Source of the DNA: a virus
Taxonomy: Duplodnaviria; Caudoviricetes
Length of the DNA: 64,000 bases
Direction: 5' to 3' (one strand)
Virus record (IMG/VR): IMGVR_UViG_2636416124_000002
Span: 18,123 to 82,122 of that record
The notes under the pieces were generated by a model. It had not been told where the DNA came from. It worked only from the letters and a program-made list of their open reading frames with translations, and made no database searches. Below, one piece after another: positions 7,858 through 51,163 of this stretch. The first letter of the stretch is position 1. Every line of letters starts with the position of its first letter. The position numbers and the translations under genes were made by a program.

Positions 7858-8634
7858 TCAGAAGTCGTACCGCAGCGAGTAGAGGTGGCCCGCTTTCGCC
7901 ATGGTCGTCACCTCGATCACGCGGTCGCCCGTGCTGTGGACCACCCGAAACGTCCGGAGGATGGCTACCTGGCGCGGCAGCTGCAACGCCTCGTACTCCT
8001 CGTTCGTCGCTTCCTCGGCTGTCACGTGGTCCACGGTGCGCAGCGGTGGAAAACCGAGGCTGGCAAGTAGAGTCGGGCTCCCGCCCTTGATCTTCGCCTT
8101 GCCCTCCAGTGCGGTACCCGCCGCCAGCTCTAGCGGGTAGTACGAGTGCACGAGCTCGCACGGCTCGCCCTGGAGCGACAGGAGCTGCTTGCGCAGGACT
8201 GCTCTCCCCGTCGGTTCAAGGCCCATGGCTGCCCGGACGTCGGCCGGAGGGGTCGTCTCCGCTACTTCCAGGAGGCGGATGCTGGGGCGTCGGCCGTTCT
8301 TCTCGGCCTCGCTCAGCCATCGGTACGGCTGCCCAGCCTCGGAGGGCTTCGAATAGGCCGCTGGCGTCATGGTCTGGCGGCGCACCTCGAGCGCCTTGAC
8401 GGATGAGCCGGCTCGCCCTTCCAGCAGCCCCTCGGCTTTGAGCATTGAGACGGCCTTCTGGATGCTGGCGCTGGACGCCCCAAAGCGCTCCTTGAGCTGT
8501 CCGGTGCTAGGGATCGCTTCGCCAGCTGGTAGGTCGCCGACGAGGATCGCGCGACGGAGGTCGGTCGCGATGCGCTCGTGAAGGGGCCTGGGGTCTGCCG
8601 CGTCGCTGGGGGTGCGGTTCTTCGCTTCCGGCAT
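7858..8634 (-). CDS. GntR/HutC-family regulator (wHTH plus UTRA), TraR/KorA-like
   Basis: RPLHERIATDLRRAILVGDLPAGEAIPS...KAVSMLKAEGLL followed by a UTRA domain. Confidence 0.9.
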   Translation of the reverse strand: MPEAKNRTPSDAADPRPLHERIATDLRRAILVGDLPAGEAIPSTGQLKERFGASSASIQKAVSMLKAEGLLEGRAGSSVKALEVRRQTMTPAAYSKPSEAGQPYRWLSEAEKNGRRPSIRLLEVAETTPPADVRAAMGLEPTGRAVLRKQLLSLQGEPCELVHSYYPLELAAGTALEGKAKIKGGSPTLLASLGFPPLRTVDHVTAEEATNEEYEALQLPRQVAILRTFRVVHSTGDRVIEVTTMAKAGHLYSLRYDF

Positions 8635-8635
8635 C

Positions 8636-9180
8636 TCAGTGCACCTTCATTTCGTATCGGAGTCTCCGGAGTTTGGCGGGGGCCACCATCACGTCCGCCT
8701 GGACCGGTCGGCCCGCCTCGTCCAGCGAGAGGCGTTCGATGACCACGACCGGCTCGTGATCAGTGAGCTGGAGTTGCTGCTGCTCAGTCTGCGAGGAGGG
8801 GCGGGCTGTGACGTCTTCGATAACGCGCGTGGCGACGTGGCCCAGCTTGGCGAGCAAGGTGATCGCACCCCCCTTGATCTTTCGCGGCTCGGCGAGCGCG
8901 GTGCCCTTTGCGATGTCGCGCGGGTAGTACGTGTCTGCGAGCTCAACCGGCGCGTCATCGGAGTAGATCGTGCGCCCGCGAACGATCGCGGTCTCGCCGG
9001 CCGCCAGGCCGAAAGCGTTCGCCACGGTCGCGGGCGGAACCGTCTCGCCGGTGCGGGTGAGCTCCTGGCTCCCCTTCGTGGACTGGCGGTTGGCCTCTTC
9101 CGTCCAGGCGTCCGCCGCTCCTGGGGGCGGGGCTTGGTGTAGTCCGCCGACGTGCTGACCCACTCGTTTTCGCTGGCCAC
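8636..9180 (-). CDS. Stand-alone UTRA-domain protein (frameshift in G-run near 9125)
   Basis: MASENEWVSTSADYTKPRP joins PGAADAWTEEA...; paralogous to the C-half of the adjacent GntR (KIKGG motif); no HTH. Confidence 0.75.
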
Positions 9181-9341
9181 TGGCGTCTCCGTCTCCTTCT
9201 CCGTAGTACGAACCTAGCTGGTTATCACGATAAGCAGGCGTGCCGGGCATCCGGATGTCGCGAGAAGCTTGCTGCTTTTTAGAAATAGCAGTACGGTTGC
9301 GAAGTCAGCCCGACACCAACCTCGGATTGGAGGACTTCGCG

Positions 9342-9581
9342 ATGGCGCTTCCCCAAAAGCTGCCGACGCTGTCCGTCAAGGAAGCGGCCACCGCCCTGGA
9401 CGTACACCCGTCGACGATCTACCGCTGGGTGGACGAAGGCGAGCTCACCGCCGTCCGCTACGGCAAGAGCCCCAGCGAGGGCAGCAAGAAGAGGGGCGGC
9501 GAGATCCGCATCCCCGAGCACGTCATCGCCGACCGCATGCGTCGTGGCCCCGTCGCCGAGATCGTCGAGGCTGCGGCATGA
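9342..9581 (+). CDS. Excisionase/Cro-like HTH protein
   Basis: LSVKEAATALDVHPSTIYRWVDEGELTAVR...IRIP; divergent from the GntR pair; GGAGG RBS. Confidence 0.85.
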   Translation: MALPQKLPTLSVKEAATALDVHPSTIYRWVDEGELTAVRYGKSPSEGSKKRGGEIRIPEHVIADRMRRGPVAEIVEAAA

Positions 9582-9745
9582 CCCCGCCGCTCACCCCGCC
9601 GTCCGCCCTGCTCTCCGATGCCGACATCGCCGCCCACGCCGCCGGCTCTTACGTCCGCCGCCCGGCCCGGGTTTCCCGCGAGTCGGTGATTCTCCCCGTC
9701 GCCCCGGCTGCTCGCCGTCGGCTGATCGCTCTCCGGCGTCTGTGA
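9578..9745 (+). CDS. Hypothetical protein
   Basis: ATGA-coupled small ORF. Confidence 0.5.
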   Translation: MTPPLTPPSALLSDADIAAHAAGSYVRRPARVSRESVILPVAPAARRRLIALRRL

Positions 9746-9960: not shown

Positions 9961-10410
9961 ATGGTCGCCAGCATCATCTCCGCCACCTCCGCCCTGTTAG
10001 GTGTCGGCCTGACCCTGTTCTTCCAGCAGCGGCAGGCCCGGCAGGTGCGGGCTGAGGGGCTGGCCGGTGAGCTGCGACGGGACACGCTGCAGGCGGTTGC
10101 GGAGCTTGCTGCTGCTGTTGCGGATCACCGCCGGACCATGTGGGTGAGGGAAGAGAAGCGGCTGAACGGCGAGGACTGGGCGCAGGATCGTGCCGCGTCG
10201 CATGCCACCCGGTCCGCGATCACTATCCCGTACACCCGGCTGTGCATCCTCGCCCCGGTTCTTGACCGGGCGGCGAATGACGCCCTCGCAGCGACATACG
10301 CGATGCGGAACGCCACCACCATCCTTGAGCTCGAAGACCAGCGGGATCTTGCGTTCGTTGCCCAGGCCCGCCTGATGGCGGCAGCCACTGCCGAACTCAA
10401 CCCGAACTGA
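9961..10410 (+). CDS. KilB-like protein (N-terminal TM helix); contains a TTA codon
   Basis: MVASIISATSALLGVGLTLFFQQR; similar to 17584..18102; TTA at 9997-9999. Confidence 0.6.
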   Translation: MVASIISATSALLGVGLTLFFQQRQARQVRAEGLAGELRRDTLQAVAELAAAVADHRRTMWVREEKRLNGEDWAQDRAASHATRSAITIPYTRLCILAPVLDRAANDALAATYAMRNATTILELEDQRDLAFVAQARLMAAATAELNPN

Positions 10411-10461
10411 ACCCCAGCGCACCTCGCTGTACCCCACCCAAGCCAACCGAAGGGCACCCCC

Positions 10462-10773
10462 ATGTCTCCGTACCTGATGTCCGCGCCCCGCCTCGACCTC
10501 CTGTCTGATGCCGATGATGCCGCCACGTCGGTGTCCGCGGTGTGGCGCAGGGCGAACACGACTGTCGCCCAGGCCGAGGAGGCCGCCGAGGGTGCTGACC
10601 GTGACCGGCTTGCGGTGTCCCTGCTCTCCGAGTACCGGGACGCCCGGTCGAAGAACGACCGGGACCGCATGTCGCACGTCCTCCTCGCCGCGACCGACCT
10701 TGACCACGCGTCCCCCGGTTGGCCGCGGCTGATGGACGAGATTCGCGGCCTGAACACCCCGGCCGCCGCCTGA
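10462..10773 (+). CDS. Hypothetical protein
   Basis: ORF with RBS inside the transfer operon. Confidence 0.65.
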   Translation: MSPYLMSAPRLDLLSDADDAATSVSAVWRRANTTVAQAEEAAEGADRDRLAVSLLSEYRDARSKNDRDRMSHVLLAATDLDHASPGWPRLMDEIRGLNTPAAA

Positions 10774-10814
10774 CTCTTTTCGCCCTCCATCGCCGCCATC
10801 ACCTGGAGCCCCAC

Positions 10815-11210
10815 ATGAGCATGCCCCGCCCCATTGCCGACCTGATCTGCCTGGGTCGGGACCTTGTCCGCCACCCGCGGATGGTGCTCCTGAACCGGGG
10901 GCATCACCGGTGGACGCCTGCCGGGCTGATCGCCGCAGCCGCTGTCGCCTCGGCTGGCACCCCGGTCGGCTACCACGTCCTTGCCGCCGCGGTGCTCGTC
11001 GCCGGGCCGTTCTGGGCGCTCGACATGATCGGCGCCCTCGCCCACGGGCTGTGGCAGTCCGGGCGGATCTGGTCCGACCTGGAGTGCCAGTGCTGCGGCG
11101 ACGACCCCGACGACGAAGACGACGACCCCGTACCGGACGAGCCGGAAGACGACGGCGGACTCGCCGCCGACATCGAGACCTGGCTCAAGACCCAGACCAC
11201 CCACCACTGA
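10815..11210 (+). CDS. Membrane protein with an acidic tail
   Basis: Two hydrophobic segments, then CQCCGDDPDDEDDD. Confidence 0.65.
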   Translation: MSMPRPIADLICLGRDLVRHPRMVLLNRGHHRWTPAGLIAAAAVASAGTPVGYHVLAAAVLVAGPFWALDMIGALAHGLWQSGRIWSDLECQCCGDDPDDEDDDPVPDEPEDDGGLAADIETWLKTQTTHH

Positions 11211-11221
11211 AGGGCCCCGTC

Positions 11222-11524
11222 ATGATCACGCAGACCGCCTGGCCCGAGAACGTCATCGCCCGCTACCTCACCGCCGGCGGAGCCACCGTCGACCTGACGC
11301 ACCGGCTCACCGTGCATAACCCGCCCGAGCCGTTCGCCACCCTCGCGACATGCACAGGCTGCCCCGTCACCGAGGAGCGTGGCCACTACCGCACCTACTA
11401 CCCCTCGGGCGGCTTTCTGGGTGACGCGGTCGAAGAGCACGAGCCCGAGGCGGCCGACGCACAGGCCCGTGCCTGGGCGCAGTCCCACGCCGAGACCTGC
11501 CGCGCCATCCCCAAGCCCGCCTGA
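11222..11524 (+). CDS. Hypothetical Zn-binding protein
   Basis: VIARYLTAGGATVDL...CTGC...WAQSHAETCRAIPKP. Confidence 0.7.
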   Translation: MITQTAWPENVIARYLTAGGATVDLTHRLTVHNPPEPFATLATCTGCPVTEERGHYRTYYPSGGFLGDAVEEHEPEAADAQARAWAQSHAETCRAIPKPA

Positions 11525-11540
11525 CCCGAAAGGAGCGACA

Positions 11541-11753
11541 GTGCCGAGCGATCCCATCACCGGACTTCGACTGAAGGACGGCAGCACCATCACGGTCAAC
11601 CCACGAGACCCCCGCGACTGCCACACCATCAGCCACACCTTCTTCCGGGCGACGGTCCGCTGCGCCGCAACAGGTGCGGTTCGGCGAATCAAGTGGCGGA
11701 ACGTCGTGCGCGTCCGCCGGACCTCCGAAGACGGCCACTACTGGACCTCCTGA
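11541..11753 (+). CDS. Hypothetical protein
   Basis: GAAAGGAG RBS before GTG. Confidence 0.6.
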   Translation: MPSDPITGLRLKDGSTITVNPRDPRDCHTISHTFFRATVRCAATGAVRRIKWRNVVRVRRTSEDGHYWTS

Positions 11754-11779
11754 ACACCCCTCACTCAAAGGACACCGCC

Positions 11780-11875
11780 ATGGCACTCCTGATCACGATC
11801 GCATTCCTGTCTCCCATGATCGCCGTCACCATCTGGCTCGCCTTCAGCCAGCCGGTGAACCGCGACGACTCCTGA
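11780..11875 (+). CDS. Small single-TM protein
   Basis: AAGGA RBS; MALLITIAFLSPMIAVTIWLAF. Confidence 0.5.
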   Translation: MALLITIAFLSPMIAVTIWLAFSQPVNRDDS

Positions 11876-11907
11876 ACCAAGCAACCCAGAAAGGACACCG
11901 ACCCGTC

Positions 11908-12183
11908 GTGACCACGCAGATCATCGAGCCCGGCCGCTATGACTACCGCCTCACCGTCAAGTTCCCCAGCACCTACACCCCCGACCACACGCCGCCCGCG
12001 TTCCGCTTGGCCGCCGCGTACCCGACCAAGCGAACCCGCAGCGTGTTCGGGCAGTTCAACCTCACTGCGCGCATGCCGCATGACCTCATCCGCGATCACT
12101 TCGTCCGCCGGGTCACGGATGAGCTGCTGCTGACGAGCGGTGACATCGAGCTTGTCAGCTTCACCCTCGACCAGCCCGCCTGA
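11908..12183 (+). CDS. Hypothetical protein
   Basis: GAAAGGA RBS before GTG. Confidence 0.6.
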   Translation: MTTQIIEPGRYDYRLTVKFPSTYTPDHTPPAFRLAAAYPTKRTRSVFGQFNLTARMPHDLIRDHFVRRVTDELLLTSGDIELVSFTLDQPA

Positions 12184-12218: not shown

Positions 12219-13592
12219 GTGACGACCAGCCCGCCCCAGGTGAACGGCCACCGCCGCCGCATCCCCGTGATCACGGAGTGGCAGACGCTCCTCGCGGCAA
12301 CCGCCGAGGAGCCGGTCGCCACCACCGAACCCCAGCCCGAACCGGCCCCGCCCACTGTGGACCTCATCGCCCAGGCCGAGGCCGACGCCATCCGCACCAA
12401 GGCCTACGCCGACGCCGAAGAACAGCGCGCCCGAGCCGAAGCTGAGGCCGAGGCCCTGCGCATCAAGGCCGAAGGCGAGGCCAAGGCCGCCGAGATCAAG
12501 GCGGCCGAGGAAGCCCGCAAGCTGAAGCTCGCCAACGACAAAGCCCAGGCCCGCGCCATCGAGGAACAGGCCGCCCGGGACGCCCGCATCGCCGAAGCCA
12601 ACCGGAAGCGCGCCGAAGCCGAACGTGGCCAGCGGGACGACGAGCGCGCCCACCGGGAGCAGCAGCAGACCGCCGCCGCCGCCGAAGCTGAGATCGCGAA
12701 GGCCGCCAGCACCTGGCGCGGGTACGCCATCGCCTTCTACGCCGTGTGCGCGGTCGTCGCCCTCCCGGTGCAGATCGCAGCGTTCTGGGACCCGGACGCA
12801 CCCTGGCTCGTCATCGCCCCGCTCATGCTCGAAGGTGCCGCGCTCGTCGTCACCAAGGGCGCCGCCGCAGCTGTTGCCGCGACCCGCCCGCACTGGCACT
12901 ACCGCACCGTCGCCTGGATGTTCGCGTTCATCGCCGCCGGGATCAACCTCGTCCACGGGCTCGACGCGTTCGATCCCGCCACCGCGATCGGCACCGCCTT
13001 TGCGTCCCTCGCCGGCCCCGGGGTGTGGGACCTCCACGAGCACGGGCGGATCCGGCGCCGCGACGGTGTTCTGACGCGGCGGCAGCGGAAGGCCCAGGCT
13101 GCCGCGGCCAAGGCGGAGCTCAGGCAGAAGGCGGCCGAAGAGAAGCGGAAGGCCAGCGAGAAGGAAGCCGCGGAGGAGGCTGCCCGGGAAGCCGCCGAGG
13201 CGCTCGCCAACTCCCGCGCCGAAGAGTTCCCGGAGGTGTGGGACGAGGCGGAGAAGATCGCTGCGGCAGTCGGCGAGATCACCGTCACGGAGGCCGTTTG
13301 GAAGCGCGCCTACCGCAACATCCAGGGCGCCGAGCCTGGCGAATCCATTGAGTCCATCACAGCCCGCCGGAAGGCCGAAGGGCGAGTCGCAGCAGCCCTC
13401 TCCGGGACCCCAGTCGCCACCCTCAGCAAGAACAAGAACGCGCAGCGTGCAAACCAAATGCCCCGGGTTCAGCGAGGGCCTGCACGCAAGCCTCCCGTCC
13501 GCCGCCCGGGAGACACCGCGAAGTACGTCCAGGCCGCCCGCAAGCAGGCCGCCATCACCGCCAAGAACGCCTCCACCGAGGAGCAGAAGTGA
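12219..13592 (+). CDS. SpdA/DUF2637-like membrane spread protein
   Basis: Coiled coil, four TM helices (…AFIAAGINLVHG…), then a second coiled coil; directly upstream of traA/traB. Confidence 0.65.
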   Translation: MTTSPPQVNGHRRRIPVITEWQTLLAATAEEPVATTEPQPEPAPPTVDLIAQAEADAIRTKAYADAEEQRARAEAEAEALRIKAEGEAKAAEIKAAEEARKLKLANDKAQARAIEEQAARDARIAEANRKRAEAERGQRDDERAHREQQQTAAAAEAEIAKAASTWRGYAIAFYAVCAVVALPVQIAAFWDPDAPWLVIAPLMLEGAALVVTKGAAAAVAATRPHWHYRTVAWMFAFIAAGINLVHGLDAFDPATAIGTAFASLAGPGVWDLHEHGRIRRRDGVLTRRQRKAQAAAAKAELRQKAAEEKRKASEKEAAEEAAREAAEALANSRAEEFPEVWDEAEKIAAAVGEITVTEAVWKRAYRNIQGAEPGESIESITARRKAEGRVAAALSGTPVATLSKNKNAQRANQMPRVQRGPARKPPVRRPGDTAKYVQAARKQAAITAKNASTEEQK

Positions 13593-13620: not shown

Positions 13621-14214
13621 ATGAGCACCCCCTCCGAGCAGGTCCGTAACTTCGCCCAGCAGCAGGCCGACCAGCCCTTCACCGCCCCGCCCCGCCCCCG
13701 CAAGGCGCCGACGAACGGTACCCACCAGGGCGGGGACAACAACTCGAAGACGCGTAACGGCGGAGGGTTCAACCCGAAGGTCGGCCTGACCCTCAACAAG
13801 ACCGTCGTCCAGGGTGCTGGCACAGTCGGCGCCACCCCGGGCGCGGGCACCCGCTCCGGAACCGGCGGGAAGGTCCCGGGTTCCGACTTCATGTCGAACG
13901 AGGACATCCGGGCGTTCTGCGAGCACCACCGCAAGCAGTCCCGGAACGGGGCCACCGAACTCGCCCTCGACGCAGACCACCTGGAGACAGTCCTCCGCGC
14001 GATCCGCGACCCCAACGGCACCATCGGAGGGTCCCGGGCCAGGGCCCGCCGTGTCACCCGGTGGCTGAAGAAGGCTGCCGCCGCCCAGAAGGCACAGCAG
14101 AAGTACTTCGCCGCCCTCTACGCCACGTTCGAGCGGGAGTTCGACTCCAACCTCCGCACCGTCGGCAAGGCTCGCTCCCAGCAGCGCCCCACCCGCAACT
14201 TCAACTGGCAGTAA
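13621..14214 (+). CDS. TraA-like plasmid transfer protein
   Basis: Gly-rich N-terminus then FMSNEDIRAFCE...RARARRVTRWLKKAA; position directly before traB as in pSN22/pJV1-type plasmids. Confidence 0.55.
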   Translation: MSTPSEQVRNFAQQQADQPFTAPPRPRKAPTNGTHQGGDNNSKTRNGGGFNPKVGLTLNKTVVQGAGTVGATPGAGTRSGTGGKVPGSDFMSNEDIRAFCEHHRKQSRNGATELALDADHLETVLRAIRDPNGTIGGSRARARRVTRWLKKAAAAQKAQQKYFAALYATFEREFDSNLRTVGKARSQQRPTRNFNWQ

Positions 14215-14238: not shown

Positions 14239-16235
14239 GTGGCTGACAGCCCCAAGGCCGACCTGTGGAAGGCCATCAAGCACCCCCGCATGAGGCCCTG
14301 GCTGACAGTCGCCGCCGAGGTCCCCGCCACCTTCGCCTCCCACCACTACTGGGGCGACTCCGTACCCGCAGCGATCGGCCTCACCGTCGCCGCCGGGGTA
14401 CTCACCGCCGCAACCTGGTGGGCGGCAGAGGGCACCCGGCCCGGCAGGCGGATCCACGCCACCCTGTCCACCGGCCTCGGAACCTCCTACCTCGTCGTCG
14501 GGACCGTCACCGGCCCGTTCGACCCGGCCATGGCATCCACCCTCGTCATCGGCGGTGCGGTCGCCGCGGGGTCCTGGAACATCCGCCAAGCGTTGCGCGT
14601 CAACGTCGACCCCCAGAAGACAGGCGGCAACGCCGAGACCGGTGTACTCGTCAAGGCCATCGGTGACGCCAAGGTCGCCCTCCGAAGCAAGCCGAAGATC
14701 GAACCTAACAAGGTCACCGCACCCCTCCAACTCGCCGCCGGACAGGTCACCTCCGACGACCTTGGCAACCGCATCAAGCACATCGCCGGCGAACTCGGCG
14801 TCTCCCCGACCAGCATCCGCGTCATCCCCGACCCCGACGACGCCGCCCGCGCCACCCTCGTCGTCGTCCCCAAGGACGAACTCAAGCAGCCCACCCCTGG
14901 CCCGGCCCGTCCAGCCCGGGTGGCAGCATCACCGAGCCCGTCGTCCCCGGCATCTACGAGGACGGTGAGGAGGCGACGCTGTGGTTCCCCGCCGGACCCG
15001 GCCGGAACGCCACGCACTTCCTCACCGCCGGGATGAACGGCTCCGGGAAGTCCGCCGGCCAGTCCGTTGCCATCACCGAAGCCCTGACCCGCCGCGACGC
15101 CATCGTGTGGGCCGTCGACCCGTCGAAGGGCATGCAGACCTTCGCCCCGTTTCTGCCCCACCTGGACTGGGTCGAGATGACCGAGGCCGGCGGCAACGAG
15201 ATGATCGACGCCCTGTCGCAGGTCATCACTGCCCGCGCCAACCGCCTCGGCCAGCACGGCTACAAGAACTGGACCCCGGACGCGTTCGACCAACTCGGCA
15301 TGCCGTACCTGATCGTGTGGATCGAGGAAGCCGCCAAGTTCTTCCGCAACGGCACCGAGATGGAAGGCTTGGTCATGGAGGCCAGGTCCGCCGGGATCAG
15401 CGTCATCATCAGCCTCCAACGCCCGTCCGCCACGTCGATGCCGACCGACGTCCGCGAGCAGCTCGGCGGCGTCCTCTGCTTCGGCGTCAAGGGCTCCACC
15501 ACCGCCGACATGGCCCTCCCCGACGACGTCCGCGACGCCGGCGCCCGCCCCGAAGCATGGGAGAACCGCAAGCCCGGCTACGCCTACCTCGTCGCCCCCG
15601 GCGTCGACGAAGACCGCTACGCCACCCCGCTGCGCACCTACCTCATCGACGACGACCAGATCACCGGGGCCCTCGCCATCCTGCCCCGCACCCCCATCGA
15701 CCCCGTCACCGCCGCCGCAGCCGGTGACGCCTACGCCAACCGCACCCAATACGACACCGACAGTCCACTGACCAGCGGTGACACCGACAGGCAGGAGCCC
15801 GTCCTCATGACCAAGGACGACAACGAGCAGGCAGAGAAGGCACTGCTGGAGAAGCAAGTCGACCGCGAGATCGACGCCATGGTCGGCGACGACCCCGACG
15901 ACGACGGACACGTCCCCGATGTCGACGCCGACCAGGAAATCGCCGCGGTGAGCGAGGTGTGGTCGTTCGGCCAGGCCCAGGCGACCGTGGAGGAGAAAAC
16001 ACCGGAGGCCGGGATGGAAGCCCTGATGGTGATGCTCGACGAGTTCCGGGCCGAGGAGCGGGAGACGATCGGACCGAAGGACTTCAGCCCCTACGGCAAG
16101 GGTTCACGCATCGGAAGGGCCCGTTCCTGGGTGTCAGGGGCCCTCGGAGACCTGTCAGATGCCGGGATTCACCTGTCAGAAACGGACAAGCCGGGGGTGT
16201 ACCGGCTGCTGTACCCGGAGCTGGCGGAGGTCTGA
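14239..16235 (+). CDS. traB: TraB, FtsK/SpoIIIE-like conjugal DNA translocase (one frameshift in C-run near 14895)
   Basis: N-terminal TM helices; Walker A GMNGSGKS; Walker B IVWIEEA; ARSAGISVIISLQRPS; C-terminal wHTH. Confidence 0.88.
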
Positions 16236-16411
16236 CACCCGGGGGTGTCAGCGCTGACACCCCATCTGACCTGCGGTGACACCGTTCTGACAGGGTTCTG
16301 ACACCCCGAAGGTGTCAGGACCGGTGTCAGAAGCCCTCCGGAGGGCCGATCTCTATAGGTCATGCGCGTGCGCGCGCATGACCCGCCCCTCCGTGACACC
16401 CCAACCTGACA
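16132..16411. repeat. clt-like cluster of TGACACC(C) direct and inverted repeats
   Basis: TGACACCC at 16233, 16255, 16299 and 16394; TGACACCG at 16277; GGTGTCA at 16244, 16311 and 16323; further TGTCAG copies inside the traB 3' end. Confidence 0.8.
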
Positions 16412-16425
16412 CAGGAGACAAACCC

Positions 16426-16855
16426 GTGAAAAGCCCCGAACCGGACGGAGGTCGGGCCAAGGTACTCGCCGCAGCACTCCGCACCTGGACCACCGTCGAC
16501 AACGACCCCAACCCCCGTCGCACGCCTCGAAATCCGGTATCCACCCCACTGGGCCTTCACCCACACCAACCCCATCACCGCCCGCCAGCAGACCCGGCTC
16601 CTCGCCTTCCTCCGCGACGACCTCGCCGAGAACCGGCCCACCCACTCCACCCCCGAACGAGCCGCCGCCGTCATCCAAGGGCTCCTCGCCGAGCACGCCG
16701 CGGCCGGCCGTAGTCGCATCACTACCGCAGACCTTGCGCAGGCTGCGCCGCGCATCGGCCGGTCCCGGGCCTGGATCGCCGCTCACATCACAGACCTCAT
16801 CGACGCCGGAGTGCTTCGCGAGACCAGGCGCCCCGACACCTTCCGCATCACCTAG
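16426..16855 (+). CDS. Small protein ending in a TraB-like wHTH (frameshift near 16505-16515)
   Basis: AGGAG RBS before GTG at 16426; joined frame ends IGRSRAWIAAHITDLIDAGVLRETRRPDTFRIT. Confidence 0.7.
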
Positions 16856-16865: not shown

Positions 16866-17354
16866 ATGCAGCTGCCCGAGCAGCCCGTCGCCGGGCAGCC
16901 CGACCCCACCGTCCGTCGCAACGCCGACCAACTGATGGCCGCGGTCGACGAGGCTCTTCTCGCCCGGCAGGCCACCTTTCACCGTGACGACCGCCCGCTC
17001 CCCGCCGTGGGTACGGCACCGCCTGTTGCCCAGCCTGGGACTCCTCCGATGTCGCAGTGGGCCACGGACGCGAGCGGCGTCCTCAAGGCCGTGTCCGTGG
17101 CGGCCCTGCCGATCGGCGGCGCCCTGTGGATCGTCGGCCAGGTCGATCCGCTGACCCTCGGCATCATCTTCGGCTCCCCGGCCGTCGCGGCCCTGGCCGT
17201 CGCCCGGCTCGTCGCGAAGGTCAAGGACGCCAACCAGAACGCCCCCCAGCCGGTCACCAACCACTTCCACGGCACCGTCCACCAGGACACCCACACCGTC
17301 ACCAGCACCACCCGGGGGATCATCGCCAACACCCGCAACCAACACGGAAACTGA
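16866..17354 (+). CDS. Spread-type membrane protein
   Basis: Two TM helices; Pro-rich N-terminus; ...NHFHGTVHQDT... tail. Confidence 0.65.
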   Translation: MQLPEQPVAGQPDPTVRRNADQLMAAVDEALLARQATFHRDDRPLPAVGTAPPVAQPGTPPMSQWATDASGVLKAVSVAALPIGGALWIVGQVDPLTLGIIFGSPAVAALAVARLVAKVKDANQNAPQPVTNHFHGTVHQDTHTVTSTTRGIIANTRNQHGN

Positions 17355-20590: not shown

Positions 20591-20591
20591 C

Positions 20592-30830: not shown

Positions 30831-30833
30831 CCG

Positions 30834-32076: not shown

Positions 32077-32078
32077 CC

Positions 32079-39909: not shown

Positions 39910-40847
39910 TGCCGATTCTTGTCGCCTCATCGACTCCGCCCGTAGAGCAGCCGCCGTGGGAGTGGCCGCAGCGTCCGGTCGAGATGCCGCTCCTGTCGTT
40001 CACCGACCCCGGTGGTGTGACGACGCTCCTCACGGACTGGGAGCGCGGCTGGGTGGTGCAGCCGGGCATCAAGGGGCTGGACATGCCCGCCTATGTCATG
40101 GCCACCGACGAGTCCCCGGGGATCGACGGGTACGAGGTGCGGCAGGTCCGCGCCCAGGGCAAGGCGATCTCGATTCCGTTGGCGTTCTGGGCCAACGACT
40201 CCCGGTCCGCCTACCTGAACCGGAGGCGGACGTTCATTCGCGCCCTCAATCCGAAGCGCGGCCAGGGCACCCTCACGCTCACACAGCCCGACGGGGCCAC
40301 CCGCAGCATCGGCGTCCGCTACCAGGACGGCATGGAAGGCGACGAGTCCCTCGACGCCGCAGGCCGCCGCTGGTGCATCGGCGTCATCACGTTCGCCGCC
40401 CCAACCCCGTACTGGGCGGGCGGCGAGGTCACCCACGCGTGGAAGACCGACCCCGGCGGCGACTTCTTCCCGTTCCTGCCGCTCGTCGTCGGCGACTCCC
40501 AGGTGCTGGGGTTGGTCACGGTCGACAACGACGGCGACGACGACGCCTACCCCGTCTGGACGATCACCGGCCCGGCCACCTCGGTGACCCTCACCAACGT
40601 GACGACCGGGCAGACCCTCGTCCTGAGCCACACCATCACCGGCACCGACACGATCGTCATCGACACCCGCGAGCGCCGCCAGACCGCACTTCTCAACGGG
40701 GTCACGAACCTGTGGCCCGACCTCTCCGACGTGTCCTCGCTGTGGCCGCTGGAGACCGGCACCAACGAACTCACGCTCACCGTCGCCGGATCCACCGCCG
40801 ACACCGAGGTCCGCATGACCTACCAGCCCCGCTACCTGGCCGCCTGA
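39909..40847 (+). CDS. Distal tail (Dit-like) protein
   Basis: Follows the tape measure gene; AYPVWTITGP; LWPLETGTNEL. Confidence 0.8.
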   Translation: MPILVASSTPPVEQPPWEWPQRPVEMPLLSFTDPGGVTTLLTDWERGWVVQPGIKGLDMPAYVMATDESPGIDGYEVRQVRAQGKAISIPLAFWANDSRSAYLNRRRTFIRALNPKRGQGTLTLTQPDGATRSIGVRYQDGMEGDESLDAAGRRWCIGVITFAAPTPYWAGGEVTHAWKTDPGGDFFPFLPLVVGDSQVLGLVTVDNDGDDDAYPVWTITGPATSVTLTNVTTGQTLVLSHTITGTDTIVIDTRERRQTALLNGVTNLWPDLSDVSSLWPLETGTNELTLTVAGSTADTEVRMTYQPRYLAA

Positions 40848-40860
40848 GAGGAGGACACCC

Positions 40861-42033
40861 ATGCCCAGCACCGCACTCCGCGTCTACGTCCGCAACCCCA
40901 CCCTGGAACGCATCGGGCAGATCGACGACTACACCAGCCTCACCGTCATGCCCCGCTACAACGGAATCGGCAGATTCACCCTCGAAGTCTCCGCCGACTC
41001 GAGCAAGGCGAATCTCCTGGCCGAAGGCAACGGGCTGATCATCCGCACTGCTGACGGCACCCTCGTCGACTCCGGGCCGATCCGCGCCGTCGACTGGTCC
41101 CGCTCCAATGACGACTCTGGCGCCGGGAAACTCACCGTCAACGGGCTTTCCGACACGGAGATCTTGGACCGCTACACCTGCTGGCCTGCCCCCGGCAGCG
41201 CGATCGGGTCGCAGACGGACACGGTCTACAAGATCAGCGCCGTGGTGGCCGAGACGGCGATGCGGACCCTCGTCAACGCTAACGCCGGGCCCGGAGCACT
41301 GGCTGCCCGCAAGAACCCGCTTCTCACCCTCGCCGCCAACGGGAACCGTGGGCCGACGATCACCCGGCAGCTCAACCAGTTCGACAGCCTCCTCGTCGTC
41401 CTCCAGGACATAGCGAACGCCGCCGGGCTCGGGTTCCGTGTTGTTCAGGTCGGCGGCGGCCTTCAGTTCCAGGTGTACGAGCCCGTCGACCGGTCCGGCA
41501 CCGCACGGTTCGCGTTCAACCTCGGGAACCTCACCGACGCCAACTACACCACCACGCCACCCACATGCACCCGGGCCATCGTCGTCGCCGGCGGGCAGAC
41601 CTCCCCGCGGTCCTGCAAAACAGTCGACCGGGCGGACCCGCTCTTCCCTGGGTTGGTCCTGGAGCAGTTCGTCGACTTGACCAGTGTCGACACGGCATCG
41701 GTCGACCTGGTGGCGCAGATGGATCAGGCAGCCAGCGAGGCCCTGACCGCCGGTGCCGGGCAGGGCTCGCTGGCGATCAGCCCGATCGATATTCCGCTGC
41801 TCCAGTACGGGCGGGACTACCAAGTCGGCGACACGGTGTCCGCGAAGGTCCGCGAGACGTGGATGACCGACGTCGTTCGCGAGGTCACCCTGTCCTGCAC
41901 CGCCGGGGACGGCACCACCGTCAAGGCCGCCGTCGGATCGACCGACGGCGACGGCACCGTGGCCCGCATCTACAAGTACCTCGCCCAGGTCAAGAAGGAC
42001 CTCGGGCGCGTCAAGACCAGGAAGGCGGCCTGA
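40861..42033 (+). CDS. Baseplate hub / ReqiPepy6 gp37-like protein
   Basis: Synteny; YGRDYQVGDTVS...VREVTL. Confidence 0.8.
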   Translation: MPSTALRVYVRNPTLERIGQIDDYTSLTVMPRYNGIGRFTLEVSADSSKANLLAEGNGLIIRTADGTLVDSGPIRAVDWSRSNDDSGAGKLTVNGLSDTEILDRYTCWPAPGSAIGSQTDTVYKISAVVAETAMRTLVNANAGPGALAARKNPLLTLAANGNRGPTITRQLNQFDSLLVVLQDIANAAGLGFRVVQVGGGLQFQVYEPVDRSGTARFAFNLGNLTDANYTTTPPTCTRAIVVAGGQTSPRSCKTVDRADPLFPGLVLEQFVDLTSVDTASVDLVAQMDQAASEALTAGAGQGSLAISPIDIPLLQYGRDYQVGDTVSAKVRETWMTDVVREVTLSCTAGDGTTVKAAVGSTDGDGTVARIYKYLAQVKKDLGRVKTRKAA

Positions 42034-42035
42034 GC

Positions 42036-43054
42036 ATGGCCGAGTTCAGTGCGCCGTTCGACGAGTCGCCGATCGCCACCCAGTCCCAGTGGTCCCGCAT
42101 GGCCCGACGCTGGGGGCTCGACGGTATTCACGCCCCGACCCCGACAGCACCACGCTGAAGGTCGCCGGGAACGGCACCGGCAACGTCACCCTCCAGCCGG
42201 GCGAGGCGTTCGTCAACGGGTTCTACTACCTCAACGACGCCGTCAAGAACATCGCCGTCACCCCCAACGCCGGAACCGTCGCCCGCATCGACCTCGTCGT
42301 CCTCCGGGCCAGCATGAGCGCCAAGTCCGTCGTCGCCGCATACAAGACCGGCGGCAGCAGCGCCCCCACGCTGTCCGCCGACGAGGACGGGGTGTACGAG
42401 ATCCCGCTCGCCCAGTGCACCGTCGCCGCCGGATCCTCCGTCGTCACCGCCGTCAACGTGCTGGACCGCCGCTGGTTCACCGACAGCGGGGCCACCCCCA
42501 GCCTCCCCGGGGCCCGCCGGCCCAGCGTCCGCGGACGGCTCCTCACCGAGAGCGGGCGCCTGTACATCGGGGACGGGGCCACCTGGCAGTGGATCGGATC
42601 CCCGGGCGTGGAGGAGGGCACGTACACCCCGCAGTGGTCCGCTGGTACCAGAAACTTCCACTGGGGCACGGACGCCGTCAATCGCGGGATCTACCAGGTG
42701 CGTGGGCGGCGTGTTGATGTGTCGATCCGTGTGCTCGTGGCGTCCAACCCGGGCGGCTCCGGCTACCCGGATCCGCTCGGGGTGTCTCTCCCGCCGGGCT
42801 ATCCGTGCACGACGACGGAGCGGTCGCTGTTCGTGTGGAACTACACCTCGGAGAACGGTGAGGGGTCCGCGATTGGGGTGGCGACGACTCTCCCGACCAC
42901 GTCCACCACGAAGATCGCCCGCCTGCGGTACTCCATGACGAACGGCGCCAGCCAGTCCGCGGTGCCGAACGCCTACAGCATGTTCGTCAATACCCCTTTC
43001 AACATCCGCAACGGCGACGTCATCGACATCACCGGCTCCTACTGGACCACCTGA
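42036..43054 (+). CDS. Minor tail protein (frameshift near 42135)
   Basis: EFSAPFD...QWSRM; VQPGEAFVNG-like and RIDLVVLR motifs. Confidence 0.8.
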
Positions 43055-43073
43055 CCCCTGAAAGGAACTCTCC

Positions 43074-44852
43074 ATGCGGCACCTCTTTGGGGGATCTACC
43101 AGTGACTACGCCATGGAGCAGGTCGGCAACCAGCTCCTGCTCCGGCCCGGGGCAACCGGCACCGTGTGGGATGCGGTGACCGGTGGCACCCAGCTCACCG
43201 ACCTGACCGACACCAGCGGCCTCCCCATCACCAGTGTGGTCGCAGCAGCGGACGGGTTCGTCGCCTTCTACGGGCCTGAGGACGCCACCACGGTCTACCT
43301 CGATTTTGGGCTCGGCCGCCGGTACGCCATGGTCGCCTCGGACATTGCCGAGATCGTCTCCGCACGGGTCGCCGGAGTGCAGTCCGCCGCAGCCGATGAC
43401 GCAACCGCAAAGGCTGCCGACGCACAGTCCGCAGCCATCGCCACGGCCGGAGCGAATGCTGCCGCCCTGTACCTGCCGAACGCCATCACCACGATCGACA
43501 GCATCATCAACCCCGCCACGCCCGTCGCCCCCGTGTACTTCGCTCACAGGGGTGGCGGCATGGTCCGCCCCGAGCACACCCTGGTCGCCTACCGGGCTGC
43601 TGCCGCGATGCGGTACCCGCTCGAAATCTCCGTCAACGTGGACGCCAGCGGCGAGCTGTGGTGCCTGCACGACCCGACCGTGGACCGGACCACGAACCGG
43701 ACGGGGAACCTCAACGGGTACACGACGGAGGAGATTGGGCAGCAGATCCAGACGAACTCCCGGTCGCTGCTCGGCGCCGGCTGGGCGGAGCAGCGGCTGG
43801 TGCCGCTCAGGCAGGTGCTGGATGAGTTCTTGGGCCGGGTGCCGATCCTGCTAGAGCCGAAAGCAAATGATGCGGTGGTGCCCACCCAGCAGTTGCTGGA
43901 CGCCTCGTACCCGCACGCCCCGCGCAGCGTGATTTGGAAGTGCCACATAGGCACCCTGTCGCTGCCGTGGGCGAAGGCGCGTGGCTACCGGACGTGGGTG
44001 TATCTGGATGCGGGGACCAGCGACTCGACGATGGACGGCAAGGACAGCCTCGTCGACTACTGGGGTGTGAACACGACGTTCACCGACACCCGGATCAGCC
44101 AGGTTGTGGCCCGGGGGAAGCCCGTCTTCGCGTGGGCGGTGTACAGAAGGTCGCAGGTCGCGCGACTGACCGGGCTGGGTGTGGTTGGCATCATGGCGTC
44201 TGATCCCCGGTATGTGTCGACGTCGGCTCCGATGCGCACGGCGTCCCGGTGGGATTTGCAGATCAAGGAGCCTGGGTGCACGCCGACGATCGACTACGAC
44301 CCTGACTACGCGCTGCAGTTCGCCCCGTCGCCGGACGTGGGTTGGGTGTCGATTCCGGCGGTGCCGTTCCAGTCGGTGGGCCTGGGCACGTACTGCCCGG
44401 TGGCTGCCGGGGCGGGTGGGTACCGGATCAGCTTCGACATGAAGTTCAAGGTGCTGCCGGGGACGAGCACTCTGCACGGCGGGATCTACTTCGGGAAGCA
44501 GAGCGACGATGCGTACAGGTTCAGCCAGTCGAACGCGACGGGCGGTTATCACCTGGTGATGCGGGCGAACGGCCAGATGCAGCTGAACAAGCACACGGCG
44601 GGGTCGACGTCGGGTACGACGATGGGTTCGGCGATTGCGACGACGGCTCCGACGGCTGATGGGGTGATGTCTTTCCAGGTGAATGTGACGCCGACGACTG
44701 TGGAGGTGCGGCGCACGGACGGTACGGGGTGGACGACGGGCGCCCTGGCGGATACGACGTACCGGGGCGGGTATTTCGGCCTGTCGAACGGTTCGATCAC
44801 GGATGTGGCGACGCGCCCGTACTGGCGGAACCTGGTGGTGACCCAGCTGTGA
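43074..44852 (+). CDS. Tail fibre/RBP with a glycerophosphodiester phosphodiesterase (GDPD) domain
   Basis: Virion-type N-terminus; YFAHRGGG...PEHTL...LEISV...LHDPTVDRTTN; beta-rich C-terminus. Confidence 0.85.
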   Translation: MRHLFGGSTSDYAMEQVGNQLLLRPGATGTVWDAVTGGTQLTDLTDTSGLPITSVVAAADGFVAFYGPEDATTVYLDFGLGRRYAMVASDIAEIVSARVAGVQSAAADDATAKAADAQSAAIATAGANAAALYLPNAITTIDSIINPATPVAPVYFAHRGGGMVRPEHTLVAYRAAAAMRYPLEISVNVDASGELWCLHDPTVDRTTNRTGNLNGYTTEEIGQQIQTNSRSLLGAGWAEQRLVPLRQVLDEFLGRVPILLEPKANDAVVPTQQLLDASYPHAPRSVIWKCHIGTLSLPWAKARGYRTWVYLDAGTSDSTMDGKDSLVDYWGVNTTFTDTRISQVVARGKPVFAWAVYRRSQVARLTGLGVVGIMASDPRYVSTSAPMRTASRWDLQIKEPGCTPTIDYDPDYALQFAPSPDVGWVSIPAVPFQSVGLGTYCPVAAGAGGYRISFDMKFKVLPGTSTLHGGIYFGKQSDDAYRFSQSNATGGYHLVMRANGQMQLNKHTAGSTSGTTMGSAIATTAPTADGVMSFQVNVTPTTVEVRRTDGTGWTTGALADTTYRGGYFGLSNGSITDVATRPYWRNLVVTQL

Positions 44853-48610: not shown

Positions 48611-48670
48611 ATAACCCCTGAACCTTGGAATCGTAGGCATATGCGATTCAAAAGCCTATGATTCAAAGGT
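48611..48670. promoter_or_regulatory. Lysis promoter region with the same motif as the head/packaging promoter
   Basis: CCTTGGAATC at 48623, GATTCAAAAG at 48645, GATTCAAAGG at 48660; CCCTGAACC at 48616. Confidence 0.6.
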
Positions 48671-48717
48671 CAACGGTCGATGCGGGCCAGCACCCCGCCA
48701 CCCCGCAGGAGACACCC

Positions 48718-49674
48718 ATGGCCACACCACTCACAGCCGACCAACTCCTCAAAGCCCTCCGCGACGAAGGCCTCCAGGTCATCGAGCACCGGAACTGGCG
48801 CACCAACAACCGCAACCACAAAGGCCCCTGGGGCCCGACGCACGGCGTGATGATCCACCACACCGTCACCAGCGGCACCAACAACTCCGTCGAGCTCTGC
48901 TACAACGGCCACAGCACCCTGCCCGGGCCCCTCTGCCACGGCGTCATCGACAAAGCCGGAGTCGTCCACCTCGTCGGGAACGGGCGGACCAACCACGCCG
49001 GACTCGGCGACGCGGACGTCCTCCGAGCCGTCGTCGCCGAAGCCGAACAGCTCCCGGTCGACAACGAAGCCAACACCGACGGCAACCGGCACTTCTACGG
49101 CTTCGAATGCGTCAACCTCGGAGACGGCAAGGACCCCTGGCCCGCCGCCCAGCTGCTGGCGATCGAACGCGCGGCCGCCGCACTGTGCCGGGCGCACGGC
49201 TGGTCGGAGCGCTCCGTCATCGGCCACCTCGAATGGCAGCCCGGAAAGATCGACCCGCGCGGCTTCACCATGGCATCCATGCGGGCTCGGATCGGGAAGC
49301 GCCTCGCCCCCACCACCAAGCCCACCAAGCCGCCCACGGCCAAGCCCACCACCCCGGCCAAGCCCAACCCGCCCAAGGCCCCGTCCATCTCCCTGGCCAA
49401 GCTCATCGCCGCAGCCCGCCACAACCCGGCCGCCAAGGGCAACCCCGTCACCTACGCCGGGGTCCGCATCGTCGAAGCCGCCCTCGTTGACGCCGGGTAC
49501 TTGGCCAAGCCGCTTCTCGACGGGCACTTCGGCACCGCCACCGTCACCGCCTACTCCCGCTGGCAGAAATCCAAGCCCGGAGGCAGCTACACCGGAAGCG
49601 CCGCCGACGGCATCCCCGGCAAGGACTCCCTCACCCGGCTCGGCAAACGCGCCGGATTCACGGTGACGGCATGA
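48718..49674 (+). CDS. Endolysin: N-acetylmuramoyl-L-alanine amidase with a C-terminal peptidoglycan-binding domain
   Basis: VMIHHT; GRTNHAG; YGFECVN; VIGHLEW...KIDP; DGHFGTATVTAY..WQ, DGIPG. Confidence 0.92.
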   Translation: MATPLTADQLLKALRDEGLQVIEHRNWRTNNRNHKGPWGPTHGVMIHHTVTSGTNNSVELCYNGHSTLPGPLCHGVIDKAGVVHLVGNGRTNHAGLGDADVLRAVVAEAEQLPVDNEANTDGNRHFYGFECVNLGDGKDPWPAAQLLAIERAAAALCRAHGWSERSVIGHLEWQPGKIDPRGFTMASMRARIGKRLAPTTKPTKPPTAKPTTPAKPNPPKAPSISLAKLIAAARHNPAAKGNPVTYAGVRIVEAALVDAGYLAKPLLDGHFGTATVTAYSRWQKSKPGGSYTGSAADGIPGKDSLTRLGKRAGFTVTA

Positions 49675-50012
49675 TCCTCAACCTGACACCGCACCCCGTC
49701 CGCCTGTACTGGGGAGAGCGCGAGGACGGCAGCGACGACCTCGATGCGCACCTCATGGAGGTCTACGAGCCCGAGCCGACTCCGGCCCGGCTCGCCACGA
49801 ACGAAGTAAGCAGCGGCATGTGGCCCGTGCTCGTCGAGTTCGGGCACGCCCAGAACCTGCCGCCCAAGCAGGACGGCTACCAGTACATCGTGTCCCTCGT
49901 CGTCGCCCTCGCCCTGGCCGACCGGCGCGGCGACCTCCTCGTCCCCTACCGCGAGGTCCGCAACGCCTCCGGAACCGTCATCGGCTGCCGCGCACTCGCG
50001 CAGCCCGTCTGA
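49671..50012 (+). CDS. NLTPH-motif small protein, candidate Crn4-like ring nuclease
   Basis: MILNLTPHPV...LPPKQDGYQYIVSLVVA...DLLVP...VRNASGTVIGCRAL. The family link is from memory. Confidence 0.5.
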   Translation: MILNLTPHPVRLYWGEREDGSDDLDAHLMEVYEPEPTPARLATNEVSSGMWPVLVEFGHAQNLPPKQDGYQYIVSLVVALALADRRGDLLVPYREVRNASGTVIGCRALAQPV

Positions 50013-50026
50013 GAAACGAGACCCCA

Positions 50027-50371
50027 GTGAAGATCTTCGGTCGCGAGCCCGCCCTCATCATCGCCACCATCTCCGCCGCCCTCTCCCTCCTCGTCAGCTT
50101 CGGCTTCGGGCTCAGCGCCGAACAGGCCGGCGCGATCATCGCCGTCATCAGCGCCGTGTTCGCCGCAGCGACCGCCGCCATCACCCGGCCCATCGCCCCG
50201 TCCGCGTTCACCGGACTCGTCGCCGCCACAGTCGCCCTCCTCGCCGCCTACGGGCTCAACGTCTCCGCCGAGACCGTCGGCGCCCTCAACGCCGTCGTCC
50301 TCGCCGTCCTCGGCCTCATGACCCGCGGCCAGGTCACCCCGGCCAAGCCGACCACACCCACAGGCAGCTGA
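50027..50371 (+). CDS. Holin
   Basis: KIFGREPAL...four hydrophobic helices...RGQVTP. Confidence 0.85.
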   Translation: MKIFGREPALIIATISAALSLLVSFGFGLSAEQAGAIIAVISAVFAAATAAITRPIAPSAFTGLVAATVALLAAYGLNVSAETVGALNAVVLAVLGLMTRGQVTPAKPTTPTGS

Positions 50372-50804
50372 TGCGCGCGGCGGCCCGGCGGCTCCGAAAG
50401 CGACTGGGCCGCCGCGGGCAGATCCTCCTCATCTTCGGCATCGGCAAAGTCTGCTGGGGCGTCGGATTCATCGTCACCCCAGTCACCACCGCACCAGGCC
50501 TCAAACTCCTCACCGACCGATGCAGCCTCGCCGCCTGGGCCTGGCTCTGGATCATCGCCGGACTCGCCTGCATCGGCTGCGCCTTCCTCCGCATAGGCCG
50601 CGACCTCCTCGGCTTCCTCGCAGCCCTCGCACCCCCTCCGTCTGGGCACTGGCCTACGGGTACGCCGCCCTCACCGGCGAGTACGCGCGCGGCACCACCG
50701 TCGCGATCTGGTACCTCACCTCGCACGTCGGGGTCATCATGTGGGCCGCCACCGTCCCGGAACACTCCGTCCCGAGGCGCGCCCGGAAAGGCAAGGCCCC
50801 GTGA
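50371..50804 (+). CDS. Multi-TM lysis-cassette protein (frameshift near 50632)
   Basis: RLGRRGQILL...WAWLW; hydrophobic. Confidence 0.7.
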
Positions 50805-51163
50805 ACATCACGGAGATCGCCGCAGTGGCCACCGCGGCGGGCGCAGTCCTCGGCGGCGGAGGCTTCTTCGTCGCCCGCGCCACCCTCAGAGCCGCACAGG
50901 CCACAGCCCGCGCCAACGAAGCAGTCGCGGCGATCAACGCCGGGCCGCAAGGCCGGGCGCAAGACCTAGCCGTCCTCAAGGCCACCGTCGAACGAGTCGA
51001 CGAAGAGAACGGGGCCCTCCGCGGGCGCATGTCACGCCTGGAGTCCCTCCTGCGCGCGTTCTCGTGGACCACCGACCGGTGGGCAGGTCAGATGCACCGA
51101 GCCGGAATCGAACCAGAGCCAGTCCACCCGCTCGTCGACGAGTACAACCGGACAGGAGTCTGA
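50801..51163 (+). CDS. TM plus coiled-coil lysis-associated protein
   Basis: N-terminal TM helix, then a coiled coil. Confidence 0.7.
   Translation: MNITEIAAVATAAGAVLGGGGFFVARATLRAAQATARANEAVAAINAGPQGRAQDLAVLKATVERVDEENGALRGRMSRLESLLRAFSWTTDRWAGQMHRAGIEPEPVHPLVDEYNRTGV

Follow-up and report, generated by a model that had tools for sequence, protein, structure and literature searches.

Background

Among the Streptomyces elements that combine plasmid and phage, pZL12 and its phage phiZL12 are said to have been described by Zhong et al. (2010, J Bacteriol 192:3747), and pFP4 reportedly by Chen et al. (2012, Plasmid 68:170). The AICEs (integrative and conjugative elements of actinomycetes) are small, replicate by means of RepSA, RepAM or Prim-Pol proteins and carry no virion genes. 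Passages in later papers date Streptomyces plasmid-phages with a plasmid transfer locus back to pZL12 (2010; accession GQ919031) (PMC4487206, PMC3583192) and give pFP4 (2012) as a second precedent (PMC6950372), and no description of integrated forms of such plasmid-phages was found in the literature searched. Characterised AICEs measure 10.9 to 17.3 kb (PMC2440964). Here we analyse a window of 64,000 nucleotides (the whole stretch of DNA under study, bases 18123-82122 of one 82,122-bp IMG/VR virus record, IMGVR_UViG_2636416124_000002), which probably forms part of a single integrating, temperate siphovirus-like Streptomyces element of approximately 82 kb, with a built-in double-stranded DNA (dsDNA) conjugation module between its early/replication and late genes, and of the mosaic kind to which pZL12 and the plasmid pCQ3 (Streptomyces sp. 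W9, NC_013449, 85.5 kb) belong.

The record is classed as linear in IMG/VR, which gives its CheckV completeness as 100 %. It has a G+C content of 68.4 %, which is even along the window, and no terminal repeats were found in the record. Because the DNA is G+C-rich, gene calling relied on a model of codon bias, for which the evident long genes served as training set, and the called genes were annotated against Pfam, NCBIfam and PHROGs. The Pfam scans covered 57 proteins of the record, mostly of at least 130 amino acids, with some small open reading frames (ORFs) falling outside the scan. Nucleotide searches against phage and plasmid collections returned patchy matches and no near-identical annotated record.

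The transfer module

The genes of the predicted transfer module and those adjoining it are as follows, in window coordinates.

7087..7722, minus strand: protein with a GIY-YIG nuclease domain and a GntR-type helix-turn-helix (HTH) (Pfam GIY-YIG, 22.6 bits; GntR, 21.2 bits; both weak)
7858..8634, minus strand: GntR/HutC-type repressor with GntR HTH and UTRA domains (Pfam UTRA, 8e-17; GntR, 5e-12)
8636..9163, minus strand: UTRA-only paralogue of the repressor (Pfam UTRA, 4e-21; paralogous at the DNA level to 7858-8634, family D3)
9297..9581, plus strand: Excisionase/MerR-like HTH_17 DNA-binding protein (Pfam HTH_17, 2.7e-11)
9961..12183, plus strand: small co-oriented ORFs, three of them with one predicted membrane helix (hydropathy scan)
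12219..13592, plus strand: 457-amino acid protein, with three helices predicted to span the membrane and a charged repeat region (transmembrane (TM) prediction)
13621..14214, plus strand: TraA (NCBIfam NF041213, 113 bits, cut-off 80; 57 % identical to pCQ3 TraA)
14239..16235, plus strand: traB, encoding an FtsK-like dsDNA translocase, split in the record (NF041214 in two halves)
16130..16415, no strand assigned: clt-like TGACACC array with repeats in both orientations (9 of the 17 window copies; palindromes)
16426..16855, plus strand: small protein, paralogous in its C-terminus to the winged helix at the C-terminal end of TraB (shift near 16510)
16866..17354, plus strand: two-helix membrane protein (TM scan; phrog_19266, 205 bits; 40 % identical to pZL12.70c)

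An initial annotation, made from the sequence alone, had proposed a TraA-like protein and a TraB in this element, and both identifications are borne out by the NCBIfam matches and by homology to pCQ3. The two halves of TraB align to positions 2-215 (250.7 bits) and 256-638 (482.2 bits) of the NF041214 profile, and share 71-77 % identity with pCQ3 TraB, in tblastn matches that fall in frames +1 and +3. The intact orthologue of Streptomyces sp. ADI96-02 (86-91 % identical) scores 833.5 bits on the same profile, above its cut-off. The translation of the window gene contains a Walker A motif (GMNGSGKS) as well as a hydrophobic run that ends in EE. The C-terminal winged helix of TraB aligns with those of the pWTY27 and pCQ3 TraB proteins, with a conserved R..SR.W.S..L.D core, and is predicted to be the domain that recognises the clt repeats.

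Eight of the seventeen TGACACC copies in the window are found within 168 bp (16233-16400), where approximately 0.03 would be expected, which agrees with the clt-like repeats noted in the initial annotation. The array starts at the traB stop codon, with the first post-gene copy including the stop. The experimentally defined clt of pWTY27 comprises four TGACACC repeats, which are footprinted by the Tra protein in vitro and begin inside the last 16 bp of the tra gene (PMC3583192; the traA of that paper is the TraB of NCBI). The pWTY27 sequence confirms the matching layout, and has the gene order membrane protein-TraA-TraB-clt. By analogy, the window array can be regarded as clt-like, as it shares both the heptamer and the placement over the tra stop codon with the pWTY27 clt. 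The protein encoded directly downstream (16426..16855) is 41 % identical to residues 599-668 of pCQ3 TraB, and homologues (47-65 %) are encoded after traB in pCQ3 and at no fewer than seven further loci. This stand-alone TraB winged helix may bind the same TGACACC repeats. The two-helix membrane protein at 16866..17354 is likewise kept after traB in the related loci L008-L010 and G017.

The GntR repressor of the initial annotation is confirmed by the GntR and UTRA domain matches at 7858-8634 on the minus strand. By its position, divergent from the tra genes, it is TraR/Kor-like, and a GntR gene occupies the same place in pCQ3, pZL12 and the plasmid CP109440. No inverted-repeat operator was found in the GntR/tra intergenic region. 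The small ORFs at 9961..12183, for which there are no family matches in Pfam or NCBIfam and some of which are kept beside TraB in relatives, are candidate spread (Spd) genes. The 457-amino acid protein occupies the place of the DUF2637 gene of pWTY27 (SpdB2-type according to the source annotation), and homologues with 54-64 % identity precede TraA in loci L008-L010 and L023; Pfam, NCBIfam, PHROGs and a PDB sequence search returned neither a family nor a function for it. The labels 'kilB-like' and 'SpdA-like' previously given to genes of this element are not backed by any Pfam, NCBIfam or PHROG match, and the candidate role of these genes in spread is based on membrane-protein character and position.

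Virion and lysis genes

Terminase, portal, capsid, tail and lysis genes, reported initially as part of the same element, are all recovered in Pfam and PHROG matches.

23544..25235, minus strand: portal protein (phrog_533, 1e-99)
25251..26507, minus strand: large terminase subunit, TerL (Pfam Terminase_6N, 4e-11; phrog_2, 2e-45)
26504..27920, minus strand: two packaging/head-associated genes (phrog_5536, of unknown function; homologues in CP109440)
28078..28856, plus strand: scaffold-position protein (phrog_15186; the CP109440 homologue matches two frames; frame-shifted near 28728)
28878..29738, plus strand: major capsid protein (Pfam Phage_capsid_4, 2e-12; phrog_267, 9e-67)
29779..32510, plus strand: head-tail joining genes, namely connector, HK97 gp10-like and tail terminator-like (phrog_2322; Pfam HK97-gp10_like; weak Phage_tail_terminator_2)
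32521..33107, plus strand: major tail protein (a 196-amino acid 'phage tail protein' of CP109440 matches two frames; shift near 32850)
34046..39909, plus strand: tape measure protein (PHROG tape-measure families; Pfam Peptidase_M23 and SLT; shift near 36960)
39984..44852, plus strand: distal tail genes, namely Dit, Gp37-like, a 321-amino acid structural protein and a GDPD-domain tail protein (Pfam SPP1_Dit, Sipho_Gp37 and GDPD; PHROGs)
48658..51163, plus strand: lysis cassette of amidase endolysin, 113-amino acid protein, four-helix holin, pZL12.42c-like gene and membrane protein (Pfam Amidase_2, 2e-20; Phage_holin_9; TM scan; pZL12 homologies)

One of the two genes at 26504..27920 possibly encodes the small terminase (TerS), and a 292-amino acid protein encoded there is frame-shifted near 27175. 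The tape measure counterpart in CP109440 is one uninterrupted ORF of 1889 amino acids. Frame shifts also affect the 321-amino acid distal tail protein (near 42135) and the pZL12.42c-like gene of the lysis region (at 50637). The description of the morphogenesis and lysis genes as complete thus stands for the gene set, which is present, but not for the genes as deposited, with scaffold, major tail, tape measure and other genes being frame-shifted. The packaging genes (292-amino acid protein, possible TerS, TerL and portal) are divergent from the scaffold-capsid-tail operon, with a 157-bp gap between the two (window 23544-28856), and this layout is also observed in CP109440, CP046906 and genome G262.

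Evidence for integration and for a single element

A tyrosine integrase is encoded at the left end of the record, identified solely through PHROG 1 (phrog_1), with no PDB sequence match and no Pfam catalytic-domain match for its orthologue. The chromosome of Streptomyces sp. ADI96-02 contains a colinear relative of the record, which begins at the integrase and reaches record base 79074, close to the right end. This relative of approximately 85.8 kb (G001:C1:5651918-5737791, loci L026-L030) is bounded by exact 14-bp direct repeats at 5651918 and 5737778 (AACTTCATCTGGAA, a sequence absent from its interior). It is inserted inside a sugar-type ABC-transporter permease gene, where it replaces the C-terminus of the permease, the reading frame of which is restored on joining the flanks. 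The G+C content is 0.68 inside the ADI96-02 element and 0.72-0.76 outside, and four transfer genes share 64-91 % protein identity between record and relative. The motif TGGGAGACGnnTGGGAG is found in the record solely at positions 80 and 81984, and also adjoins attL and attR in ADI96-02 at matching spacing, which indicates that the record was cut at, or opened in, the attachment region. There is no tRNA at the record ends. A tRNA-Met gene, absent from the ADI96-02 relative, is located internally near the right end (window 59953-60025).

Neither ParA nor ParB could be detected in a six-frame search of the whole record (AAA_31, ParB_N), nor do the ParAB stretches of pZL12 and pCQ3 have any match in the record. 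With an integrase and arm motifs at its ends and no ParAB found, the element is, as far as its sequence indicates, integrative rather than a pZL12-style plasmid. This integrative nature is missed by the initial annotation, which had proposed that the flanks be inspected for an integrase, att sites or circularity; such inspection yields the integrase and arm motifs at the record ends, and a record classed as linear.

The transfer genes and the virion and lysis genes were also proposed to reside in one element, and this is upheld by the ADI96-02 colinearity, by the single direct-repeat pair and by an independent 49-kb contig of another strain, which bridges traA/traB, portal and scaffold. As this contig spans the junction, the join is not an assembly chimera. 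A much diverged chromosomal locus in genome G017 has the same order, with replication genes (DnaB/O-like) followed by TraA/TraB and then tail genes, and the order in pCQ3 is GntR, TraA/TraB, capsid. A different Tra type is found in the same slot in pZL12, CP109440 and their kin.

The co-occurrence survey advocated in the initial annotation for traB and terL was run with TraB and the portal, in a sample of 401 Streptomyces species genomes centred on ADI96-02. NF041214 was matched in 62/401 genomes (about 15 %), 42 of them above cut-off, and this portal type in 60/401 (about 15 %), with the two within 15 kb of one another solely in ADI96-02, the sample centre. Tail genes are present in one (G017) of the twenty TraB loci for which a 20-kb downstream flank was inspected. 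The TraB-virion pairing is thus uncommon but recurrent. No terminase was found via phrog_2 in genomes G017 or G002. Close TraB relatives among deposited plasmids are limited to pCQ3 and the W75 plasmid (NC_019307).

Frame shifts and alternative explanations

Nine genes are frame-shifted relative to their homologues, eight in the window (near 14890, 16510, 27175, 28728, 32850, 36960, 42135 and 50637) together with the integrase (record bases 483-501), and any gene call in the record therefore needs care. The traB gene has a net 1-nt deletion at 14886-14897 relative to four relatives, and the gene at 16426-16855 has 2 nt fewer than four relatives. Every shift that was placed on the ADI96-02 alignment consists of one base missing from the record beside a C/G run. 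The traB gene is intact in 16/16 TraB relatives found in genomes, and contigs of approximately 92 % identity hold three more bases across traB and the next gene, as expected if the genes there are in frame. No premature stops were noticed in the homologous stretches, for which no specific test was made. The frame shifts are thus most probably assembly errors rather than decay, judging from the pattern of missing bases, with real decay a rather improbable cause.

Were the shifts real, the element would be a decaying, immobile relic, for which virions and conjugation are both impossible. The nine interrupted genes, among them traB and those for integrase, tape measure and major tail protein, would fit such decay. 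However, the placeable indels all concern a missing base beside a C/G run, with no insertion, longer deletion or nonsense codon, and the coding bias and 70-90 % protein identity persist beyond each shift, while sixteen genome relatives as well as short-read contigs are in frame. The pattern fits long-read or compression errors in DNA of 68 % G+C, and a relic is considered unlikely. Several observations nevertheless weigh against the interpretation as one integrating, dual-purpose element. As deposited, traB, integrase, scaffold, major tail and tape measure genes are broken, and if this is real the element is dead; the shifts were judged on the sequences of relatives, as no sequencing run of the source strain was found. 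Each TraB half scores under the NF041214 cut-off (800 bits), and the Pfam FtsK_SpoIIIE (PF01580) match is weak, at 16.5 bits and below cut-off. The record itself displays neither its own att core nor host flanks. Furthermore, the closest relative by head genes, in genome G262, has no TraA/TraB that could be found with the queries used, so that the module appears exchangeable rather than universal. Finally, spread by both virions and mating is inferred from the gene content, and traB is frame-shifted in the record.

The linkage of transfer and virion genes might also be ascribed to two separate elements, a small AICE in, or in tandem with, an ordinary prophage, each moving alone. Numerous chromosomal loci do have the same TraB type without any phage gene being detected at a distance of up to 10-20 kb, and the two unrelated Tra types in one slot of related plasmids point to modular exchange. 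Against this, no integrase was detected in or beside the transfer block (5-18 kb) in Pfam/NCBIfam scans, no exact direct repeats bracket the tra block, where there are only low-identity chance pairs, and neither the att core nor the arm motif recurs internally. The initial annotation had associated an independent AICE at 7-18 kb with its own integrase and att-like repeats, and neither is found to bracket this region; the chimeric join it also envisaged is countered by the contig spanning traA/traB to scaffold. The G+C content is uniform, and the order is kept in the ADI96-02 relative, G017 and pCQ3. An AICE inserted in a prophage is unlikely given the lack of a bracketing integrase/att pair, the colinear relative and the conserved order, and we allow only a very slim chance for two elements that move separately. 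A non-integrating, pZL12-like plasmid-phage, in which a circular plasmid was opened near a recombinase site and the recombinases resolve multimers, would account for the closest deposited-plasmid TraB relatives being the circular 85-kb pCQ3 and W75 plasmids, for the serine resolvase and the candidate plasmid-type initiator with internal iterons in the record, and for the integrase genes that pZL12 and pCQ3 also carry. It is quite unlikely, however, in view of the absence of ParA/ParB in six frames, where both pZL12 and pCQ3 have the two, the linear IMG/VR class, the record ends lying between two arm motifs where the relative has attL/attR, and the clearly chromosomal colinear relative. TraB could alternatively serve the phage within one mycelium, by moving DNA across septa or excluding rivals, with no inter-strain transfer. 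Besides transfer, the Tra/Spd systems of Streptomyces bring about spreading within the mycelium (PMC4170104), and the module is conserved within phage-like elements. Nothing in the sequence separates such a role from conjugation, while the pWTY27 tra and clt mediate inter-strain transfer (PMC3583192), and an exclusively intramycelial function is regarded as very unlikely.

Proposed mode of spread

If the element is indeed a single integrating phage with a conjugation module, the tyrosine integrase would insert it into the chromosome, and the excisionase-like HTH protein may aid its excision. The excised circle would replicate by way of the O-like initiator, loader and DnaB, possibly along with a second initiator with internal iterons. 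The DNA could then exit by either of two routes. In one, the terminase and portal would package it into capsids, to be released by holin and endolysin. In the other, relief of the GntR repressor would allow TraB hexamers to bind TGACACC and drive the double-stranded circle into an adjacent hypha, after which the membrane proteins may spread the transferred element through the mycelium.

Should these functions be active, the element could pass from cell to cell in two independent ways, with virions limited by receptors and hyphal dsDNA transfer by contact. A temperate phage so equipped would have a wider host range, and the distinction between prophage and AICE would become less sharp. Surveys that search 30-60 kb for an integrase together with Rep and Tra, or that call prophages from virion genes alone, would give such elements a single label. 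The clt, TraB and winged-helix paralogue would also represent a testable system in a phage background. A more far-reaching possibility, which we consider doubtful though conceivable, is a conserved lineage of integrating 'conjugative phages', the excised genome of which chooses between packaging and TraB export, with the winged-helix copy as switch or loader at TGACACC. Receptor-determined limits on host range would be overcome by prophages of such a lineage, which could also mobilise DNA of the chromosome.

Replication and accessory genes

Just upstream of the window there are genes for an O-like initiator (matching phrog_270, phrog_391 and phrog_678), for a loader resembling DnaC/IstB and for the helicase DnaB. 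A further candidate replication gene is located within it.

4816..5955, minus strand: candidate plasmid-type initiator with iterons within its own gene (GGGTCACCT repeats at 5508-5627)

All four exact window copies of GGGTCACCT, as well as two near copies, are packed into 120 bp of this ORF. It was initially described as a lambda-O-like, iteron-containing initiator; the iteron ORF exists, but it has no O family match, nor any Pfam or PHROG match, a PDB sequence search returned no function for it, and its homologues are all annotated as 'hypothetical'. The AlphaFold model (mean pLDDT 60.5; domains 80-90) comprises an N-terminal winged helix, a disordered linker across the repeats and a helical C-domain. 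Its top fold matches are weak (E about 0.1), and are to RepA_N initiator and DnaD N-terminal domains. RepA_N initiators carry the origin inside the rep gene, which lends weak support to a second, plasmid-type origin that may adjoin the transfer block. In line with the initial annotation, which saw no RepSA system, no RepSA, RepAM or Prim-Pol replication gene is present among the 57 proteins scanned with Pfam. The chromosomal relative in genome G262 (loci L054/L055, G262:C1:700001-740000), which has the closest head genes but no TraA/TraB match, also carries the replication module together with a counterpart of the 457-amino acid membrane protein, with approximately 6 kb lying between these features.

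The first ORF of the window is a pZL12.94 homologue, for which no function was found via Pfam, PDB sequence search or PHROGs. Accessory genes at window 18317-19266 and 47952-48575 encode a DUF6221 protein, an HD-domain protein and an Rv2179c-like 3'-5' exoribonuclease, the pZL12 counterpart of which is 70 % identical. A recombinase gene is found beyond the lysis cassette.

53625..54233, plus strand: small serine recombinase of the resolvase type (Pfam Resolvase, 1.5e-26)

It is followed by a gene for a 437-amino acid protein with a weak Brz-type zinc-ribbon match, and an ATP-dependent DNA ligase is encoded nearby on the opposite strand (window 53625-56928); these genes may serve in multimer resolution or repair. 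Pfam, PDB sequence search and PHROGs gave no function for the 437-amino acid protein. The two ORFs were considered as a split large serine integrase; this was rejected, as a length of 202 amino acids is usual for a resolvase and no recombinase domain is present in the second ORF.

Comparison with known systems

Like pZL12, the record is a large Streptomyces element (82-90 kb) in which a siphovirus late operon and lysis genes are combined with a transfer locus of the FtsK type under GntR control, situated between the early genes and the packaging genes. The two have in common their lysis genes, a GDPD tail protein and a number of small genes (40-91 % protein identity). In contrast, the pZL12 tra genes (.71c-.73c) have no tblastn match in the record, and its head/packaging genes are unrelated to those of the record at the sensitivity used. 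pZL12 carries ParAB, which was not found in the record, whereas the record, unlike pZL12, ends in att arms and has a relative that is integrated. What is stated here of the experimental work on pZL12 follows later papers that cite it.

The TraA-TraB-winged HTH paralogue module is shared with pCQ3 and the W75 plasmid, and in pCQ3, as in the record, a GntR gene lies upstream and a major capsid gene downstream of traB (approximately 10 kb away in pCQ3). Both of these plasmids are, however, circular (85-kb), pCQ3 carries ParA/ParB, and their virion genes are of another type, with only Dit, holin and a few others matching the record weakly. The 14-kb plasmid pWTY27 resembles the record in its membrane protein-TraA-TraB-clt order, in a TGACACC clt starting from the last tra codons and in the C-terminal winged helix (PMC3583192). 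Its TraB is only approximately 34 % identical to that of the record, where the TGACACC repeats are more numerous than in pWTY27 and occur in both orientations.

With the AICEs of the pSAM2, SLP1 and pMEA300 type (PMC2440964, PMC3218068), the record has in common an integrase and att sites, an FtsK-like Tra, a GntR/Kor-type repressor, spread genes and integration. Unlike these elements, it extends over 82 kb, has a full morphogenesis and lysis set as well as phage-type replication genes, and its relative sits in a protein-coding gene. The virion genes of the record are otherwise met in CP109440-type plasmids. As judged by its gene content, what is new here in comparison to pZL12 and pFP4 is an integrative element, without ParAB found, in which a pWTY27/pCQ3-type TraA/TraB/clt module is combined with CP109440-type virion genes.

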